Of a stretch of DNA of 23,351 nt, positions 2-9,084 are shown one piece after another. Positions within the stretch are counted from its first letter, which is position 1; each line of letters starts with the position of its first letter. The notes beneath the pieces were generated by a model that made no database searches, was not told where the DNA came from, and was given only the letters and a program-made list of their open reading frames with translations. Both the position numbers and the translations under genes were made by a program. Source of the stretch: Elusimicrobiota bacterium (GTDB lineage Bacteria > Elusimicrobiota > Elusimicrobia > UBA1565); contig JBDREN010000123.1 of the NCBI GenBank assembly GCA_043819795.1, forward strand, positions 1-23,351, written 5' to 3'.

Positions 2-667
2 CGCTACCTCCACCCCGAAGAGATCAGGACGTTGCTCGAGGCGGCCGCATCGGTCAAGAAGACCTTGCTGCTCCCTGCCATCTTGCTCGCGCTTTACGTG
101 GGACGACGGCGGGGCGAGATCCTGGGCCTGAAGCGGCAGGACTACGACCGAAAAAACGGATACCTCTACCTCCGAAAAACCAAGAAGGGCGAATCGGACC
201 AGATTCCCGTGCCTCCGGCGGCTCAGCGGGTACTCGACAAGCTATGTGACGAAGGACGATGCGATTGGTTATTCCCGAATCGCCAACTGGACGGCCCCGT
301 CGCCGATATTGACGCCGCCTTCCATCGGGCGAAACAAATAGCCGGGATCACGGACTTCAGATTTCACGATATACGCCATACGGCCATCTCATACATGATC
401 ATGGCCGGGGTGGACTACTTCACCATCGCGCAGCTCGCCGGGCACACCACGCCCACCATGATCGAGCAGCGCTACGGGCACCTTTCTCCCAGACACCGGC
501 AGGCGTCGTCGGTGCTCTTCGGCGCCTATATGGACCGCCTGACGGGAGAGGCACCAGCACAGCCGGTGGGCCCACACAAGCCCCCAGAAGCGCCCATAGT
601 GGCCCAGGTTGCCGGGCTGCTTACGGATCGGCAACCTATGAGGCAAGCCGACGGGACTTCAGGCTGA
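2..667 (+). CDS. Tyrosine recombinase/integrase (phage/ICE type), 5'-partial
   Basis: Frame is open from base 2 (RYLHPEEIRTLL...). All catalytic motifs are present: G-R-R-R-G-E (Arg), LRKTKK (Lys), FHDIRH (HxxR), LAGH, and RYGH (Tyr nucleophile). The short spacing between KTKKG...IPVP and WLFP shows there is no IntI-specific insertion. Confidence 0.93.
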   Translation, partial: RYLHPEEIRTLLEAAASVKKTLLLPAILLALYVGRRRGEILGLKRQDYDRKNGYLYLRKTKKGESDQIPVPPAAQRVLDKLCDEGRCDWLFPNRQLDGPVADIDAAFHRAKQIAGITDFRFHDIRHTAISYMIMAGVDYFTIAQLAGHTTPTMIEQRYGHLSPRHRQASSVLFGAYMDRLTGEAPAQPVGPHKPPEAPIVAQVAGLLTDRQPMRQADGTSG

Positions 668-790
668 CCAAGGCTAATCCAATAATTAGGGGCCTGCTCC
701 CAACGGGATAGGCTGACCGGGCGTGCAGTGTTTGTCCTGCCCCCAAAGACAAGCATCTTCAAAGGACACCGGCGGGACCGACACAAGTCT

Positions 791-799
791 TGCTATCAT
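791..799 (+). promoter_or_regulatory. Possible extended -10 promoter (TGcTATCAT) upstream of the cassette ORFs
   Basis: TGnTATCAT about 75 nt upstream of the 873 start. Motif match only. Confidence 0.3.
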
Positions 800-872
800 C
801 TTGTCAGCTGGCAGAACTAGGCAGACCGGCTGACTCATTAGTTGAACAAAGCCGCTCCGAAAGGACGATACA

Positions 873-1649
873 ATGACATCGAACAGTACCCCAGATCCTG
901 ACCTCCCAGGCTGTGCGGCTCTTGCCCCACTAATGTCTTTCGATCCGAAGGCCTTGCTGTCCGAAGACCGTGACGAGCAGGAGGTCTGCGACTTCGTTCT
1001 TATGCTATCTGTCGTGTATAACGATTTCAAAGATCTTATCTGGGCCTACCACCACCTTGACCACTGCCGACAACCTGAAGATGGGGAAGTCAGTTCCTAC
1101 AACGGACAATACGTGGGGATGCGTAATCACCTAACGCGACTTTTCCACTCCCTCATCTTCGAATTCACGATGCTTCTCAGGGAAAACAAACACATTCTCG
1201 ACCACGCTCTCTTCCGGAAGACACTAGGCTTCGTCAGCAAGGAGAATCGCACTCGCTGGGCAGAACTCCTGGCATTCTCCCGTGGGGAGGCAAACGAGAG
1301 TGCAAAGGACCTCCTAAGAATCTCCATGCTGCTGAGGCACAACATCACCTCTCATTACTATAAGCCAACGTTCCTAGCGAAGGGATACAAGTCTTTTTTT
1401 GAGAATGCCAAGGATGAAGCTCATTCAAGCGCCTTCATTTCCAGGGGCATGTCGCTGGACGCCAATCGCCTCTACTTCGCTGACGCCGCGCTTGATGGTT
1501 GCATCAAGCGCTTGGTCCCTTCCGACAAGATGCACGATATTCGTCAGAGCCTAAACGCGGTGGCGGACTTCATCAATAGAACCCTTATGGATATCGTAGA
1601 GAAATTCATTCAGGCACGCGGCTTTGCATGGCGAGAACACTCTGGATAG
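873..1649 (+). CDS. Hypothetical protein with putative HEPN-like RNase motif; probable integron cassette gene
   Basis: 258-aa ORF with AAGGA RBS upstream. Largely helical-looking sequence with LRHNITSHYY (R-x5-H). The stop codon is 7 nt before an attC site. Confidence 0.75.
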   Translation: MTSNSTPDPDLPGCAALAPLMSFDPKALLSEDRDEQEVCDFVLMLSVVYNDFKDLIWAYHHLDHCRQPEDGEVSSYNGQYVGMRNHLTRLFHSLIFEFTMLLRENKHILDHALFRKTLGFVSKENRTRWAELLAFSRGEANESAKDLLRISMLLRHNITSHYYKPTFLAKGYKSFFENAKDEAHSSAFISRGMSLDANRLYFADAALDGCIKRLVPSDKMHDIRQSLNAVADFINRTLMDIVEKFIQARGFAWREHSG

Positions 1650-1656
1650 GACCGGC

Positions 1657-1713
1657 GCCTAACAATCGATTGAGCGAGCGCGCTTCGCGCGCCGCTCATC
1701 GTAGACGTTAGGC
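1657..1713 (+). mobile_element. Integron attC recombination site (57 bp)
   Basis: GCCTAAC (R'', RYYYAAC)-AATCG-ATTGAGCG (L'')-A-GCGCGC-TTC-GCGCGC-CGCTCAT (L')-CGTAGAC-GTTAGGC (R', GTTRRRY). R boxes are perfectly complementary, L'' has one extra base, there is a second unpaired A, and the spacer is partly unpaired. Confidence 0.9.
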
Positions 1714-1732
1714 GAATGATGGATAATATCCA

Positions 1733-2782
1733 ATGGCTGAGATGAAACCGGAAGTCTCGTTCCCTGGCGGCTCCAAATCACGTGTCAATCGCGCTGGCGA
1801 CAAGATTCGCCAAGATGCAGCGACTGAGGATGATTTTCGTGCTGTTGAAGATTGGAGAGCGGCACACCGTGGTGTTCTTAATACGTTTCAAGAGATTTTA
1901 CGCCGGCGAACACGAGAGATGGGTGTAACAGTCGCTCAACGCCACAAGCGAAAAACAACCATTTTTGACAAATTACTTCGCCTTCCCAAAATGAATTTGT
2001 CACGAATGGATGACATCGCTGGATGCCGCCTGATCTTTAAGACCATTCCAGAGCTCTACAACTTCCGAAAGGATTTTCACACGGCCCGATTTGACCACAG
2101 GCGAGTGAATGAAGTGGACAAGTACGATTACATTAAGTCTACGAAGGGAACGGGCTATCGTGGAGTTCACGACGTTTATGAATACCACGTTCGGTCAGAG
2201 GTTGGGAGAGCTTTGGCCGGACTGCTTGTTGAAATTCAATACAGAACGCATGTTCAGCATGCATGGGCCACCGCCGAGGAAGTGATCGGCTTTGTGACCG
2301 AGAGTCAGCCGAAATTCCAGAAGGGTGACAAGCGCTACGAAAATGCGATGGCGTTGGCCGCCGAAATTTTGGCACGGGCCTCGGAGAAGCGCTCCGGGCC
2401 ATTCCCAAAACTCGCAGATCGCGAGGTCGTAAGACGATTCTTGGCCGTGGATTCCGAGCTGGGTCTACTAGCGATGCTGAAAGGCCTGAATGCCGCAAAG
2501 AAAGATGTCTCCACAAATCGGAACGCAATTCTCATCTTCTCAAAAGACAATAACCTAGAAACCCAAACCTTCCGAGATGCAACCGACGCTCTTAGGGCGT
2601 TGTTTCAGCTTGAAAAAGATCGGCCCGGCAGTGACATCGTTCTGGTACGCGCCGATACGAGCGAAGAGGTCCGCTTCGCTTTCAAAAACTATTTTACCGA
2701 TGCGCGTGATTTTATCCGTTTACTGGAGAGTGGGTGTGAAAAGCTATCCGGTATTAGGGTTGCTAAGCGCGTCAATCGATAA
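1733..2782 (+). CDS. capRel: RelA/SpoT-family small alarmone synthetase, fused CapRel-like toxin-antitoxin
   Basis: SYNTH motifs AQRHKRKTTIFDKL, RMDDIAGCR, DYIKSTKGTGYRGVH and EIQYRTHVQHAWAT. N-terminal SKSRVNRAG..WRAAH and C-terminal DIVLVRA...AFKNYF match the layout of fused CapRel proteins. No HD hydrolase, TGS or ACT domains. Confidence 0.85.
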   Translation: MAEMKPEVSFPGGSKSRVNRAGDKIRQDAATEDDFRAVEDWRAAHRGVLNTFQEILRRRTREMGVTVAQRHKRKTTIFDKLLRLPKMNLSRMDDIAGCRLIFKTIPELYNFRKDFHTARFDHRRVNEVDKYDYIKSTKGTGYRGVHDVYEYHVRSEVGRALAGLLVEIQYRTHVQHAWATAEEVIGFVTESQPKFQKGDKRYENAMALAAEILARASEKRSGPFPKLADREVVRRFLAVDSELGLLAMLKGLNAAKKDVSTNRNAILIFSKDNNLETQTFRDATDALRALFQLEKDRPGSDIVLVRADTSEEVRFAFKNYFTDARDFIRLLESGCEKLSGIRVAKRVNR

Positions 2783-2804
2783 GCCGCTCGTGGGCCGTGT
2801 CGGT

Positions 2805-2835
2805 GCCTAACAACGCGCTTGATCCGCCGAGCGCG
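2805..2835 (+). mobile_element. Truncated attC site (left arm only)
   Basis: GCCTAAC-AACGC-GCTTGATC... begins 22 nt after the CapRel stop. This R'' is complementary to the GTTAGGC at the cassette start (1707-1713). No matching L'/R' arm follows. Confidence 0.65.
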
Positions 2836-2901
2836 GGGGGAGACCCTCTAGCCCGCCCTATCCGCCGTTCATTGGCCCTGGGAGCCTCCGTGCCCTCGGG
2901 A

Positions 2902-2930
2902 GTCGCCACAGCGGCTGTCGCCACAGCGGC
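2902..2930. repeat. 14-bp direct repeat GTCGCCACAGCGGC x2
   Basis: Exact copies at 2902-2915 and 2917-2930. Confidence 0.9.
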
Positions 2931-2989
2931 ATTCGGCTGGCCCAGGAAAATGCTAAAATCGCGGCGTAGTGATTTGCGCGCGGGAAAAG

Positions 2990-3011
2990 TTTGGCCCCCA
3001 TTTGGCCCCCA
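2990..3011. repeat. 11-bp tandem repeat TTTGGCCCCCA x2, putative integrase arm-type site
   Basis: Exact copies at 2990-3000 and 3001-3011, about 55 bp from the tRNA 5' end. The function is inferred. Confidence 0.7.
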
Positions 3012-3064
3012 AGCGTGTTTCGGGCGATTTTGCAGTATCGAAAAGTGTTGGAAAACGTTACATA

Positions 3065-3152
3065 GGAAGGGTGCGTGAGCGGTTGAAACGGACGCTCTCG
3101 AAAAGCGTTAGGCGGCGACCCCGCCTCGTGGGTTCGAATCCCACCCCTTCCG
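3065..3152 (+). tRNA. tRNA-Ser(CGA)
   Basis: Acceptor stem GGAAGGG/CCCTTCC with discriminator G. Anticodon stem ACGCT/AGCGT with loop CT-CGA-AA. Long variable arm AGGCGG/CCGCCT. T arm GTGGG-TTCGAAT-CCCAC. CCA is not encoded. Confidence 0.97.
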
Positions 3153-3200
3153 TGCCTTTTTTCACGGCGATAGACCAATGTTCATGGGAAGGTGTTGATC

Positions 3201-3623
3201 ATGTGGAATCCGCTCACCAAGCTCCGCGAGAAGTTCGGCAAGCCGAAGGCCCCGGGGGCCAAGCACCAGCACATCGACAAAGAGCTCGTAGAGGCCGCGA
3301 AAGACGCCAGCGCTCCCGACCTTAAGGAACTGGAGAAGAAGGGCCTCCTGGGAAAGTTCTTCCGCCACTGGAAGAACCCCGCCTTCCTGAGCCAGATGCG
3401 CACGGTGGCCGCGCGCATGAAGGCCGAAGGCGTGGACATAAAGGATCAGAAGGCCGTCAAGGAGTGGGTCGAGAAGCACGAGGCCGAGATCGAGTCGGGA
3501 CGGTTAGAGGCCCCGGCCGAATCGGAAAAGAAGACCTTTACGAAGTCCGCTCCCAGCGTGAGCCGCAACGCCCCCTGCCCGTGCGGCAGCGGGAAGAAGC
3601 ACAAGAAGTGCTGCGGCCGCTAG
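3201..3623 (+). CDS. SEC-C motif (zinc-binding) domain protein
   Basis: C-terminal VSRNAPCPCGSGKKHKKCCG. ATG 3201 follows a GGAAGG RBS (the ORF track starts at GTG 3192). Confidence 0.85.
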   Translation: MWNPLTKLREKFGKPKAPGAKHQHIDKELVEAAKDASAPDLKELEKKGLLGKFFRHWKNPAFLSQMRTVAARMKAEGVDIKDQKAVKEWVEKHEAEIESGRLEAPAESEKKTFTKSAPSVSRNAPCPCGSGKKHKKCCGR

Positions 3624-3624
3624 C

Positions 3625-4989
3625 CTAGGAGAACAGCAGCAGGGTCGCGAGGGCTAGATAGGCGGCCGTCCCGATGATGTCGGTCAGCGTCGTGACGAGC
3701 GGGCCGGTCGCCGTGGCCGGGTCTATGCCGACTCGCCGGAAGACCAGCGGGACGAGCGCGCCCAGCGTCGCGGCGACCGCCATCGAGACCAGGACCCCCA
3801 CCCCCGTCACCAGAGAGAACTCCCAGCCGAACCTGGCGCCGTAGAAAAGGTGGGCCACCCCCACCATCACCAAGCTCGCGGCCAGGCCCAGCAGGACGCC
3901 GACGCGGAGGTCCCGCAGCACGATCCTGCCTCCCTCCGCGTCCTTGATCTCCCCGGCGGTTAGCCCGCGCACCATGATCATGGCGGACTGGGCGCCGATG
4001 TTTCCGCCCATCGCCGCGATCAGCGGGATGAAAGTGGCCAACGCGACCATCTTGGAGAGCGTGAGCTCGAAACCCCATATGACGCCGGCGACGACCAGCT
4101 GTCCCAGGCAGGTCACGCCCAGCCATGGGGCCCGGTGCCATACCGATTCCCAGGCCGTCTCGGACTCGAACTCCTCGGCCGCCGTGCCGACCATCTTCGC
4201 GAAGTCCTCCTCGGTCTCCTCCTCGACCACCTCGACGATGTCCTGGTCGAGAACGACGCCCAGCAGCCTCCGGGCCTCATCGACGACCGGAGCGCTCTCC
4301 AGCTTGTAATGCGCGAAGAGACGCGCCGCGGCCTCCTGGTCCATCTCGGCCGAGAGCGTCTCGGGGTCCTCGTTCATGAGGTCCTGGACCAAGGTGTCGT
4401 GCGGCGCGACCACGAGCTTCTTGAGCGTCACCGCTCCCCGCAGGCGCCCGTCCGGATCGACGACCAACAGCTCGTCGAGGAACGTCGTCTCGATGAACTG
4501 GAGGGGAGTCCCCTTGTAGATGCGCTCAAGCGCCTGCCGGCTGGTCATGCGCGGGCTCAGCGAGACGTAGTTCGAGCGCATCAGCGCGCCGACGGTCTCC
4601 TCCGGATACCGCAGGAACCGCTCGACCTTCTCTCCGTGCTCCCTGCGCAGAAGGGGCTCGAGCTGGTCCACCAGGGGCTTGGGCAGCTCGCGCAGGATGC
4701 GGCCGGTCTCCGTCGGGTCGAGGTCCTCGACTAGGTCCTCGACATCCTCCTGCTGCAGGGCCGTCATGAGCTCTTCCTGATGCTCGGGCTCGAGCTCCTC
4801 GAAGAGCTGCAGCGCGCGCTGGCGCGGCGAGAGCTTGAAGAGCACCTTGCGCTCGTCGAGGGTGAAGTGCTCCCAGCCGTCCGCCAGGTCGAAGGGGCTG
4901 ATCTGCTGCAGGGCCTTGCGGAGCGAGACGAACTCCTGGCCCTCTAGCAGCTCCTTCAGATCGGAGAGGAAAATCCGGATGACGCGCAT
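3625..4989 (-). CDS. mgtE: Magnesium transporter MgtE
   Basis: Acidic N domain, YPEETVGALM plus CBS pair, RAPWL, PLIAAMGGNIGAQS and GIDPATATGPLVTTLTD. Start at MRVIRIF (4989); the ORF-track extension to 5571 is antisense to the next gene. Confidence 0.95.
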   Translation of the reverse strand: MRVIRIFLSDLKELLEGQEFVSLRKALQQISPFDLADGWEHFTLDERKVLFKLSPRQRALQLFEELEPEHQEELMTALQQEDVEDLVEDLDPTETGRILRELPKPLVDQLEPLLRREHGEKVERFLRYPEETVGALMRSNYVSLSPRMTSRQALERIYKGTPLQFIETTFLDELLVVDPDGRLRGAVTLKKLVVAPHDTLVQDLMNEDPETLSAEMDQEAAARLFAHYKLESAPVVDEARRLLGVVLDQDIVEVVEEETEEDFAKMVGTAAEEFESETAWESVWHRAPWLGVTCLGQLVVAGVIWGFELTLSKMVALATFIPLIAAMGGNIGAQSAMIMVRGLTAGEIKDAEGGRIVLRDLRVGVLLGLAASLVMVGVAHLFYGARFGWEFSLVTGVGVLVSMAVAATLGALVPLVFRRVGIDPATATGPLVTTLTDIIGTAAYLALATLLLFS

Positions 4990-6039: not shown

Positions 6040-9000
6040 TTAATCGTCGCTGAGGCGGGAGGCCAGCTTGGCGCGGTCTTCGGACGGAGGGCGCGCGAAG
6101 AACTCGGAAGGCTGCGAGAGGTCCTCGGGCGGGCGCTTCGGCTTCAGCGGCCTCCAGCCCGTGTCGTGGAGCATCTTGAAGTACGCCCGATAGAAGGCGA
6201 CGTCCGTCGGGTCGTCGAAGAAATTCGCGTTCTCGTAGCTGTTCTTCTCGGCGTTGCCGGTGTAGTTGAAAGAGCCGGTCTCCAAAAGCTTCCCGTCGAC
6301 CACCATGAACTTATTATGGTTCTTCTCGAAGAAGACATCCCCGTCCGGGTTGGGGCCGGCGACGATCTTGACGTCGAAATCGTGATACGCGAACCAATCG
6401 TCGAGCTTCATGAGCTTCGACTGCATGCGGTCGAGGACGACGGCCACGTGGACGCCGCGCTGCTTGGCCTGCAGCAGCTCCTCGGCGATCCGCACTGAAT
6501 AGAAGCTGAACATGGCGATCTCGATCGTGGTCTTCGCGGCGCGGACCGCGCGGATGAGGGTGTCCTCCACGAGCCCCGAGGGAGAGAAGGCCTGGCGCGG
6601 GAAGCGCTCGCCGTTGAGCTCGATCGCGTGGTCCTTGTCCACGGGCGCGGATTCCGGACGCTCCTTCGCCCATTCATGGTCCTCGGCCTCGGCGACCGTC
6701 ACGGCGTAGCCCCGCATCCACTCCCACACCTTGCCGTAGAACGCCACGCGCTGAGCATCGGCCTCGAACTTCACGCTCTCGAAGTGGTGCTCCTCCGACG
6801 CGCGAGTGTAGTTGTAGGAGCCGAACTCCACCATCTTCCCGTCGAAAACGGCGAACTTGTGGTGCATGATCCCCGAGGCGGTGACCCCGCGGAGCACCCT
6901 GACGTCGAATCCCTCGTCGATCAGCGCCTGGATCTGGGCGGTCCGCTCGCGTTCCTGGCCGCTGTGGTTGGTGCCGCGCGGGAAGACGTGCAGGAAGTCG
7001 ATGATGAAGCGGACCTTCACCCCCCGCTTCTTCGCGCGCCGGAAGGCCTCGAGCACCTTCTCGAGGTTGAACTCGTAGAGGGCGAGCTCGATGGTCTTTG
7101 CGGAGGCGTCGACGGCCTTGACCAGGAGGTCCTCGACCGGGTGCTGCGGGCGCACGGCGTTGGACGGGAAGTTCTCGCCGTTGAAGGCGATCTCGCGCGA
7201 GGCCGGCATCTCGGACCACACGGGAGCGGGAGGCGGAGGCTCGGGCTCGCCCTGGAGCCCCTCGGTCAGCTCCTCGTCGGTCGGCAACTTCGGCTCCGCG
7301 GCCGGCGGGACCACCCGCTTCGCGCGGCGGGTCCCGTACATGTCCTCGAAATAGGCCTCGTAGGCGCCGGCGTCCGTCTTATGGTCCAGCAGGAAAGCGT
7401 TCTCGAAGTTCGTCAGGAAGCCGCTCTTGGTGTAGTTCAGCGAGCCGGTGACGACCAGCTTGCCGTCCAGGATCATGAGCTTGTTGTGGTTCTTTTCCGC
7501 CCACTCGGGGCCGTCCGGGTTCGGCCCCGCCAAGGTCTTCACCGGGATCTTGTGATACGCGAGCCACTCGGCGTAGGGCCGCATGAAGTCCTGCCCGGCC
7601 TGCGTCTCATCGAGGAGCACGCGCACTTTCACCTTGCGCTTCTTCGCGTCGAGCAGCGCCCGCGCGATACGGGGCGAGCTCAGCGTGAACATCGAAAGGT
7701 CCACGGACTTGTCGGCCGCCCCGATCGCCTTGACGACCAGGTCCTCGCCGGCGCCGTCGGGGGTGAATAACCAGGCGGGAAACCGCACCCCGTTGAACAC
7801 CACGCCGGCGACCTCGTCCGCGGGAGGCGGCCGCGCCTCGCGCGGCCACTTATGGTCCTTGGCCTTATCGAACGCGACACCGAGCGACCGCAGATGCTTC
7901 CAGTAAGCCGCCAGGGCGCGCACCCGCGCCTCATCGGCCGTGAAATTGACGTTCTCGTAATGGTTGCGCTCCGAGGTGTAGGACCAGTTATAGGAGCCGA
8001 AGAGCCCCATCTTGCCGTCGAACACGGCGAACTTGTTGTGCATGATCCCGTAGCGCTGCGCGCCCCGGACCACCGTCACATCGAACCCCCCGTCCACGAG
8101 GGACTGCAGCTCGAGACTGCGGTGAGGCCAGTAGTCCGCGCCGGGACGCCGCCGCGGGTAGGCGTTGTAGTAGTCGATGATGACCCGGACCTTGACGCCC
8201 CGGTCCTGCGCGCGCCGAAGGGCCTTCAGTATCTCCTGGTTCTTGAACTCGTAGAGGGCTATCTCGATGGACTTCTCCGCCGCGTCGATCGCCGAGACGA
8301 TCAGGGGCTCGATCGGCCGGTCCGGGCGGAAAGCGACCGAAGGGTAGGCGCGGCCGTTGAACTCGATTTTGCGCGCCGAGTACTTCGGCCCCTGCTTGCG
8401 GCCGGAGGCATCCCGGGACTCTCCGGCGTCGGTCTTGGAAGCGTCGTCCGAGAGGGCCCCGGTGACGGCGCTGGCCTCATCGTAGGATCCGGCGTCCTGC
8501 AGCCCGGCCTTGCGGTTGAAGAAGCGCTCGGCGGCCGCGCGCAGGGAAGCCAGCCCGGAACCGCCCCCGGGCGCCTGGAGCCGCGCCCCAAGCCGGGCGA
8601 GGGCGGGCATCCGCCGGCCGGCCCCGCCTTCCTGGGAGAGCGCCCGCGCCGCGGTCCGGAGCCCGGCATGCGAGCTCGCGTCCGGATCGGCGATCCGCGG
8701 GCTCGCGGCCCGCGAGACGAGGACCGACTCCGGACCGGCGACACTTCCCGCCGTCCGGGCGGAACGTCCGCCCGATTCAGGCAAACCTATCGCCGGGGCC
8801 AGCGCACGCGGTCCCCACGATGCCGCCGGGGTCAGCTCGCGCGACCCCAGCGAAGGGAGCGTCCCGGCCAGGGCCGGAGCTTTGTCGAGAGAGGATATCG
8901 CGCCCAACGAACCGGCGCCGAGGCTCCGCACCGATCCGCCGGCGACCGCGGGGACCGCTTGGCTGGCTTGGGATCCGACGGCGGTTTGCGCCACTTGGGC

Positions 9001-9084
9001 GGCCCTTACGGCCGGCCCGTTCAGGGAAAGCACGCAGAGGACGGCGATCGCTTTCCGGAAAAGATGCGGCGCCTGGCGCTCCAT
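6040..9084 (-). CDS. Secreted phospholipase D/Nuc-family protein with four HKD motifs
   Basis: HNKFAVFD, HNKLMILD, HHKFAVFD and HNKFMVVD, each followed by GSxN. N-terminal signal peptide and about 200 aa of low-complexity linker. Confidence 0.92.
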   Translation of the reverse strand: MERQAPHLFRKAIAVLCVLSLNGPAVRAAQVAQTAVGSQASQAVPAVAGGSVRSLGAGSLGAISSLDKAPALAGTLPSLGSRELTPAASWGPRALAPAIGLPESGGRSARTAGSVAGPESVLVSRAASPRIADPDASSHAGLRTAARALSQEGGAGRRMPALARLGARLQAPGGGSGLASLRAAAERFFNRKAGLQDAGSYDEASAVTGALSDDASKTDAGESRDASGRKQGPKYSARKIEFNGRAYPSVAFRPDRPIEPLIVSAIDAAEKSIEIALYEFKNQEILKALRRAQDRGVKVRVIIDYYNAYPRRRPGADYWPHRSLELQSLVDGGFDVTVVRGAQRYGIMHNKFAVFDGKMGLFGSYNWSYTSERNHYENVNFTADEARVRALAAYWKHLRSLGVAFDKAKDHKWPREARPPPADEVAGVVFNGVRFPAWLFTPDGAGEDLVVKAIGAADKSVDLSMFTLSSPRIARALLDAKKRKVKVRVLLDETQAGQDFMRPYAEWLAYHKIPVKTLAGPNPDGPEWAEKNHNKLMILDGKLVVTGSLNYTKSGFLTNFENAFLLDHKTDAGAYEAYFEDMYGTRRAKRVVPPAAEPKLPTDEELTEGLQGEPEPPPPAPVWSEMPASREIAFNGENFPSNAVRPQHPVEDLLVKAVDASAKTIELALYEFNLEKVLEAFRRAKKRGVKVRFIIDFLHVFPRGTNHSGQERERTAQIQALIDEGFDVRVLRGVTASGIMHHKFAVFDGKMVEFGSYNYTRASEEHHFESVKFEADAQRVAFYGKVWEWMRGYAVTVAEAEDHEWAKERPESAPVDKDHAIELNGERFPRQAFSPSGLVEDTLIRAVRAAKTTIEIAMFSFYSVRIAEELLQAKQRGVHVAVVLDRMQSKLMKLDDWFAYHDFDVKIVAGPNPDGDVFFEKNHNKFMVVDGKLLETGSFNYTGNAEKNSYENANFFDDPTDVAFYRAYFKMLHDTGWRPLKPKRPPEDLSQPSEFFARPPSEDRAKLASRLSDD

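Follow-up and report, generated by a model that had tools for sequence, protein, structure and literature searches.

A fused CapRel-family toxSAS gene, apparently of integron-cassette origin, near a tRNA-Ser gene in an Elusimicrobiota genome

An open reading frame on the + strand of an Elusimicrobiota contig (positions 1733-2782) raises the question of whether an anti-phage toxin of the CapRel family has been packaged as a mobile integron cassette, and whether departures from the canonical CapRel switch motif give it a regulation of its own. The window, as the whole stretch of DNA analyzed is called here, is 23,351 nt long and comprises the whole of its contig (C123; JBDREN010000123.1 of assembly GCA_043819795.1). 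A first, sequence-only reading had proposed a fused CapRel-like toxSAS bracketed as one excisable cassette by the repeats GTTAGGC (1707-1713) and GCCTAAC (2805-2811), both of which are present, and had taken an FKNY switch, an RHKR motif and a short sensor region as hints of a different trigger or regulation.

The ORF is intact, has a GC content of 50.3% (66.8% for the genome) and encodes a 349-aa product whose C-terminal end reads ...DIVLVRADTSEEVRFAFKNYF..., as that reading had quoted it. Met4 (1742) may be an alternative start; by eye, a 9-codon upstream ORF (1716-1745) has its stop overlapping the ATG at 1742 (ATGA), an arrangement that could reflect translational coupling or point to 1742 as the true start. 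A Pfam search of the 349-aa protein placed a RelA_SpoT domain (PF04607, E 3e-12) at residues 69-180, inside a toxSYNTH domain that together with a basic N-terminal helix covers about residues 10-252 (1760-2488, + strand), as delimited by the residue map to CapRel-SJ46 and by invariant columns. The toxSYNTH domain keeps R70, K72, D94, R99, Y142 and E167, and all clade-invariant catalytic residues are in place. In the residue map R70, D94, R99 and Y142 pair with SJ46 R79, D111, R116 and Y155, which bears out the claim of intact SYNTH motifs, and Q169 and R171 also map to the SJ46 SYNTH domain. The top PDB sequence matches were the CapRel-SJ46 entries 9ERV and 7ZTB (E 1.4e-19); the C-terminal domain gave them a weak additional match, and RelQ followed at E 3e-9; identity to CapRel-SJ46 is 27%.

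The predicted structure points the same way. An alignment-based AF2 model built on 150 sequences reached a pLDDT of 88.7 (a single-sequence fold gave 38.7) and superposed on 7ZTB with a TM score of 0.75 and a Z of 28.1 (rmsd 3.7 over 314 aligned residues, span 10-337), covering both domains; in its switch region the pLDDT is about 65 and the open and closed states cannot be read. Against RelQ and RelP the same model gave a Z of 13-15 (up to 15.4) over about residues 29-220 only, and its N-terminal helix and C-terminal domain align to CapRel alone. A PADLOC run assigned the protein to PDC-S33 with 324 bits (profile positions 5-343 of 349), compared with 290 bits for SJ46; this is a broad profile (10.1101/2024.01.29.577857) that takes in SJ46 and does not separate the query's own clade. 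S33 is absent from the main text of that source, and a literature search for PDC-S33 returned no papers. Identity as a housekeeping small alarmone synthetase of the RelP/RelQ type was rejected, as the RelQ (YjbM) equivalog scores 50.7 bits against a cut-off of 320 and the protein has 349 aa in two domains rather than about 200 aa. A long Rel is encoded separately in the same genome, and the query falls among fused CapRels in a quick tree that held no RelP or RelQ sequences. Judged by sequence and modeled fold, ORF 1733-2782 encodes a full-length fused CapRel toxSAS, and the structure and profile scores did not show the clustering with RelP/RelQ that would have spoken against the sequence-only reading.

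The closest known systems are CapRel-SJ46 of Salmonella phage SJ46 (7ZTB, 9ERV; PMC9712102, PMC11578894) and CapRel-Ebc (PMC13423816). The query shares with CapRel-SJ46 the toxSYNTH plus pseudo-ZFD fold along its full length, the A-[YF]-x-N-Y-F switch and the PADLOC profile. Its switch motif F317-K-N-Y320 (2681-2692, + strand) is the equivalent of SJ46 Y352-P-N-Y355, and the SJ46 docking residues A77, R116, V338, L339, A351 and Y355, with roles as described in PMC9712102, are kept as A68, R99, V303, L304, A316 and Y320. At the eight SJ46 positions linked to constitutive toxicity, six residues are identical in the query, the exceptions being Y352 (F317) and A341, which aligns to R306 in an uncertain register; replacement of A341 by Lys is described as making SJ46 toxic (PMC9712102). 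Where the query does differ from SJ46 is in FKNY for YPNY, in RHKR (residues 70-73) for RLKR, and in its placement in a separate, well-supported clade.

Whether these two motif differences signify altered regulation was judged against a family sample of 150 representatives (50% clustering), of which 90 were near full length and 87 could be aligned across both motifs. The first switch position is Y in 56 and F in 31 of the 87, N319 is invariant (87/87) and Y320 is kept in 84. F also occupies the first position in distant lineages (L070, L078, L084), and in ATfaRel2 the Y54A substitution is reported to abolish neutralization while the effect of Y51A is modest (PMC11782079), a dependence on the second tyrosine that fits tolerance of F at the first; FxxY is thus common natural variation, and its standing as a rare regulatory variant was dismissed. 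RHKR fares no better as a functional marker coupled to FxxY: H71 occurs in nine of the 87 representatives, three of these with Y, F is combined with L in 23, and the middle residue of R-x-K varies, being L in SJ46 and S in the genome's own Rel. All 120 of the closest sequences (64-74% identity, query counted) carry RHKR together with AF-x-NYF, and by sequence the pair is a marker of a widespread clade and not peculiar to this gene. The suggestion that FKNY and RHKR are special did not survive this comparison.

That clade was delimited in a quick maximum-likelihood tree of 70 rows, from which 27 of 97 had been left out (26 close relatives thinned, plus the broken L071). The query lies in a 45-row clade with a long stem (SH-aLRT 100), apart from the 10-row SJ46 clade, and within an RHK subgroup of 40 rows (support 91); those members that carry a name belong to Pseudomonadota, Thermodesulfobacteriota and Nitrospirota. 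Fused CapRels are patchy in distribution: with the centers excluded, they occur in 1 of 300 other genomes of the query's phylum and, in two further phyla, in 9 and 5 genomes out of 400 each. Of these last 14 fused-CapRel matches, which come from evenly drawn genomes, 4 belong to the RHKR/FxNY clade. A set of 50,697 phage records contained no member above 60% identity, and E. coli genomes gave no DNA match to the gene; the dearth of close members in curated phage records is a further difference from SJ46. One 1,173-aa protein (P0244) joins an RHKR/FKNY CapRel to TIR and weak STAND-NTPase matches and is either a true fusion or a read-through artifact.

A more telling difference from SJ46 lies in the sensor. 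The model predicts a compact pseudo-zinc-finger antitoxin/sensor of β-β-α-β order at about residues 256-306 (2498-2650, + strand), with strands at 264-269, 275-280 and 301-306 and a helix at 283-296, carried with its anchor helices in the same chain as the toxin. From L249 to V303 it spans 55 aa, 23 fewer than the 78 of SJ46 (median 62 among 91 aligned sequences), so that the short sensor region noted earlier is real. It is without the SJ46 269-278 segment and roughly the 293-303 loop, and lacks the anchor-1 residues and loop that bind the SJ46 triggers, residues 269-278 being described as contacting Gp54 (PMC11578894). The W178-Y320 span is uniform, at 143 aa in both the 10th and the 90th percentile of 119 homologues, vs 160-168 aa in the SJ46 clade.

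Published accounts single out the sensor region as the most variable part of CapRel (PMC9712102; PMC13423816). Its conservation was compared on 43 shared columns, with pairs matched by toxin-domain identity. At 60-70% toxin identity, the sensors of 28 clade members identified by pattern or profile share 48% identity (269 pairs), as against 62% for score-ranked top hits (205 pairs) and 32% for the SJ46 clade (119 proteins, 5,936 pairs); at 70-80% the corresponding values are 58%, 65% and 46%, and in neither bin are the pairs independent. The ratio of sensor to toxin identity drops from about 0.86-0.89 in the score-ranked set to 0.73-0.80 in the less biased one, so even in the clade the sensor varies more than the toxin domain; a ratio near 1.0, obtained from score-ranked hits with the docking residues included, was inflated and is superseded by the 43-column figures. 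Neither clade set shows any variation at N264, L275, F291, E294 or D301. In these sets the aligned sequences put the greater conservation of the clade sensor as real but moderate, and compactness alone could lie behind it. As the sensor is both shorter and more conserved than that of SJ46, the clade probably answers to a different trigger, which may also be more conserved. The expectation of a different trigger therefore stands, drawn from the sensor and not from FKNY or RHKR.

Taken together, these features make it probable, by analogy with characterized CapRels, that the protein is an autoinhibited, phage-triggered defense acting through tRNA pyrophosphorylation. It would be a single-chain toxin-antitoxin that inhibits itself until a phage-derived trigger binds the C-terminal sensor. 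If it works as CapRel-SJ46 and CapRel-Ebc do, F317 and Y320 would dock at R70/R99 and block the donor-ATP site, the trigger would open the sensor, and the active enzyme would pyrophosphorylate tRNA 3′ ends, so that translation would stop and the infection be aborted. The low SJ46 identity, the long clade branch and R306 opposite A341 all count against a close fit to this mechanism.

A related account, possible though on balance doubtful, keeps the same autoinhibited tRNA toxin and is compatible with the phage-triggered mechanism, but has the clade sensor read a conserved cue in place of a fast-evolving phage protein: a phage-perturbed host protein, a stress signal or a highly conserved phage fold. 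Such a cue would permit function across many phyla after cassette transfer, and the sensor identities, the uniform W178-Y320 span and the five invariant residues all agree with it, as does the description of CapRel-Ebc as needing host FtsZ in addition to T7 Gp0.4 (PMC13423816). The effect is, however, smaller in the less biased set, the sensor varies more than the toxin domain, and many of the invariant positions may be needed for the core or the docking of a compact domain, in comparisons whose pairs are not independent.

The phage-triggered CapRel reading extends to how the gene arrived. Its upstream repeat, GTTAGGC at 1707-1713, is the right end of a complete 57-nt attC site (1657-1713, + strand) with an R″ box GCCTAAC, L boxes and an R′ box G/TTAGGC. 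The bottom strand of this site folds at -21.8 kcal/mol (z -5.6; none of 200 shuffles as good), and in a + strand scan of the genome it was the sole site with perfect R and L scores; it was also recovered in a two-strand scan. A single ORF stands directly 3′ of this G/TTRRRY core site, as in a cassette, with 19 nt between the attC and the first ATG of the CapRel ORF; the 9-codon ORF mentioned above starts right after the attC. The downstream repeat, GCCTAAC at 2805-2811, opens an attC left arm (R″ and L″; 2805-2828, + strand) whose right half is either absent or has decayed. Because 16 attC sites did not align well enough in MAFFT to build a covariance model, the arm was scored with a left-arm weight matrix derived from 11 further attC sites, the 2805 site left out; at 20.6 bits it ranked first among 76,622 AAC-anchored positions of the genome.

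No hairpin was detected at 2805 in three bottom-strand folds of 86-136 nt (z +0.2 to +0.8 vs shuffles), and no R′ box lies in range: the next GTTRRRY is 302 nt away at 3107, a GTTAGGC that belongs to the tRNA-Ser gene. Of R″, L″, L′, R′ and hairpin, only the left arm is found downstream of the CapRel gene, and an excisable cassette was rejected for this copy. Since 2805 is a half-site, the cassette is probably unable to excise by attC x attC recombination. The complete attC and the true left arm lead us to infer that the gene is a cassette in origin, so that of the excisable cassette first proposed, the origin holds and the excisability does not. Decay of its own attC would probably have stranded it, and any present movement would be with the surrounding island, not as a cassette. 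Nor is there a complete integron with adjacent IntI and attI, the neighboring integrase being phage-type; the genome carries its IntI genes on contigs C133 and C91, with none on the window contig, and an IntI inside the assembly gap that splits the island is possible. The C133 integron (388-4332) has two attC cassettes 3′ of intI on the same strand, not divergent upstream, and a further complete attC, much like the C133 site, is seen near the end of contig C13 (48334-48421).

Ahead of the complete attC lies a 258-aa ORF (873-1649, + strand, GC 51.6%) whose stop is 7 nt from the site. It has no Pfam, PADLOC or PHROG match, yet it carries the R-x5-H motif RHNITSH, and among its ESM Atlas neighbors at 0.93 are an unnamed cluster of 10,729 members and one labeled 'putative HEPN AbiU2-like'. 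A HEPN/AbiU2-like assignment is a lead only; the ORF is probably an upstream cassette, and a second defense cassette, behind which the CapRel gene would have come.

Both cargo genes, at 50-52% GC vs 66.8% for the genome, sit in what has the marks of a tRNA-integrated island: a duplicated tRNA fragment, a tyrosine integrase and a foreign composition. The contig begins inside the integrase gene, of which the C-terminal part remains (2-667, + strand; PF00589, E 5e-24; phrog_1, E 4e-44); as an IntI it was rejected, scoring 20.8 bits on TIGR02249, far under the cut-off of 265, and it likely belongs to the island at the tRNA-Ser(CGA) gene (3065-3152, + strand; ARAGORN), which is the sole Rfam match in the window. 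The first 43 nt of this tRNA (3065-3107) are repeated at C235:488-446 with 42/43 identity, and this 5′ duplication is read from the sequence as the attachment site of the island. A 24-nt repeat at 2988-3011 (+ strand), with an exact copy near the other island end (C235:322-299), likely represents an integrase arm site. Because the island ends are on different contigs, the link between C235 and C123 rests on synteny in one of two relatives: in G144 the host gene that adjoins the duplicate on C235 has its homologue upstream of this tRNA, and the SEC-C gene lies downstream, while in G072 the upstream genes differ. The two contigs would be the ends of one island, or of stacked islands, at the tRNA 5′ half, with an assembly gap between them.

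In tRNA-integrated islands it is usually the 3′ end of the tRNA that is duplicated. Here the 5′ half is, so the intact tRNA stands at the downstream end of the island and would need an island promoter. By eye, a reverse-oriented 3′ tRNA fragment near the contig end (C235:1-130), within the island boundary, suggests a second, nested element, and in the relative G072 the tRNA is preceded by two short repeats of the tRNA-Ser 5′ end (GGAAGGGTGC; L090:6530-6640), possibly scars of earlier insertions. Elsewhere in the window, a 1,014-aa ORF on the - strand (6040-9084) has four HKD-type phospholipase D repeats, seen by eye and in a repeat table.

This setting bears on whether the gene is expressed. 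A scan for the sigma-70 consensus found no promoter upstream of either the CapRel ORF or the 258-aa ORF. It is conceivable, if unlikely, that the copy is intact yet silent, a promoterless cassette severed from its integron promoter, in keeping with its closeness to the attC, the lack of a promoter-like site upstream and the lack of an IntI on its contig; yet the ORF has stayed intact with its clade-invariant catalytic residues, read-through from upstream genes of the island could transcribe it, and the scan covered the sigma-70 consensus only.

Association with attC sites extends to the clade, which is often found beside them, unlike SJ46. Of 40 loci with at least 55% identity to the query, 11 have a flanking attC left arm that scores 12 bits or more, as does 1 of 24 other CapRel loci, against about 0.02 per locus expected from genome background; 9 duplicate loci were dropped and 2 had flanks too short to count, the threshold was self-set and fails to pick up the good 1657 site (11.4 bits), and part of the training sites were taken from other places in the counted loci. 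At the other 29 of the 40 loci no arm exceeds the threshold. A neighbor survey of 20 clade loci (85 ORFs, run without a control set) found type I RM genes (L019, L025, L043), PD-T7-4 (L016), FRG/PDC-S15 (L007) and integrases or resolvases (L008, L009, L039, L074), with no recurring partner family and ordinary neighbors at many loci. At L025 (315-5815) the clade member directly follows hsdM-hsdS of a type I RM operon, the type of context used to define PDCs, and precedes an AbiJ-NTD4 gene. Defense genes in attC cassettes are already established, both as BRiCs (10.1101/2024.07.02.601719) and in sedentary chromosomal integrons, where 783 known defense systems are reported from cassettes (10.1101/2024.07.02.601686); the query differs from these in having no adjacent IntI and an incomplete downstream attC. 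The main texts of these two sources do not name CapRel, and a search of the CapRel and integron literature, as far as the texts available extend, found none placing CapRel in cassettes. From family and context an anti-phage role is likely, and the mobile anti-phage cassette of the sequence-only reading keeps this role and probably loses its mobility as a cassette.

Two further accounts compete with phage-triggered tRNA pyrophosphorylation. That the protein is instead a regulated small alarmone synthetase, with (p)ppGpp or (p)ppApp as its product and tRNA left unmodified, is improbable: the SYNTH chemistry is common to both activities and SJ46 is distant, but the N-terminal helix match and the antitoxin domain set the protein apart from RelP and RelQ, with which it shares the SYNTH core, its RelQ score is far under the cut-off, and a pseudo-ZFD with a YXXY-type motif is described as going with tRNA-targeting toxSASs (PMC11782079). 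Among the latter, FaRel2:ATfaRel2 (PMC11782079) and PhRel:ATphRel are two-gene systems whereas the query is one chain; the YXXY-type block of the donor-ATP site is a likeness to FaRel2:ATfaRel2 by the description in that source. Toxin-antitoxin cassettes stabilize integron arrays, and the frequent attC association would suit an addiction cassette that maintains the array or island and senses no phage, but this is very improbable for a single chain that cannot readily kill by antitoxin decay when the gene is lost, for a clade with no attC arm over threshold at most of its loci, and for a family in which all three fused CapRels tested are described as protecting against phage (PMC9712102).

CapRel is a model for phage sensing by bacterial immune proteins, and its mechanistically described members, SJ46 and Ebc, are, on the published descriptions, close relatives in which the sensor is the least conserved part. 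The query clade is large, widespread and apparently untested; literature searches found no study of it by title or abstract, and supplements may hold FxxY members or CapRel cassettes. The FxxY motif is nothing unusual, and this copy has probably lost its mobility as a cassette. A tentative and rather unlikely prospect is that the clade forms a large, cross-phylum, integron-borne CapRel branch whose compact, constrained sensor reads a conserved cue, for instance a host protein that phage perturbs or a phage fold of near-universal occurrence. If true, this immunity would be portable and broad in spectrum, would act by tRNA pyrophosphorylation and would contrast with the fast-evolving sensors of the enterobacterial CapRels studied so far. 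The clade's trigger would tell whether rapid sensor turnover is general to CapRel or limited to one lineage.
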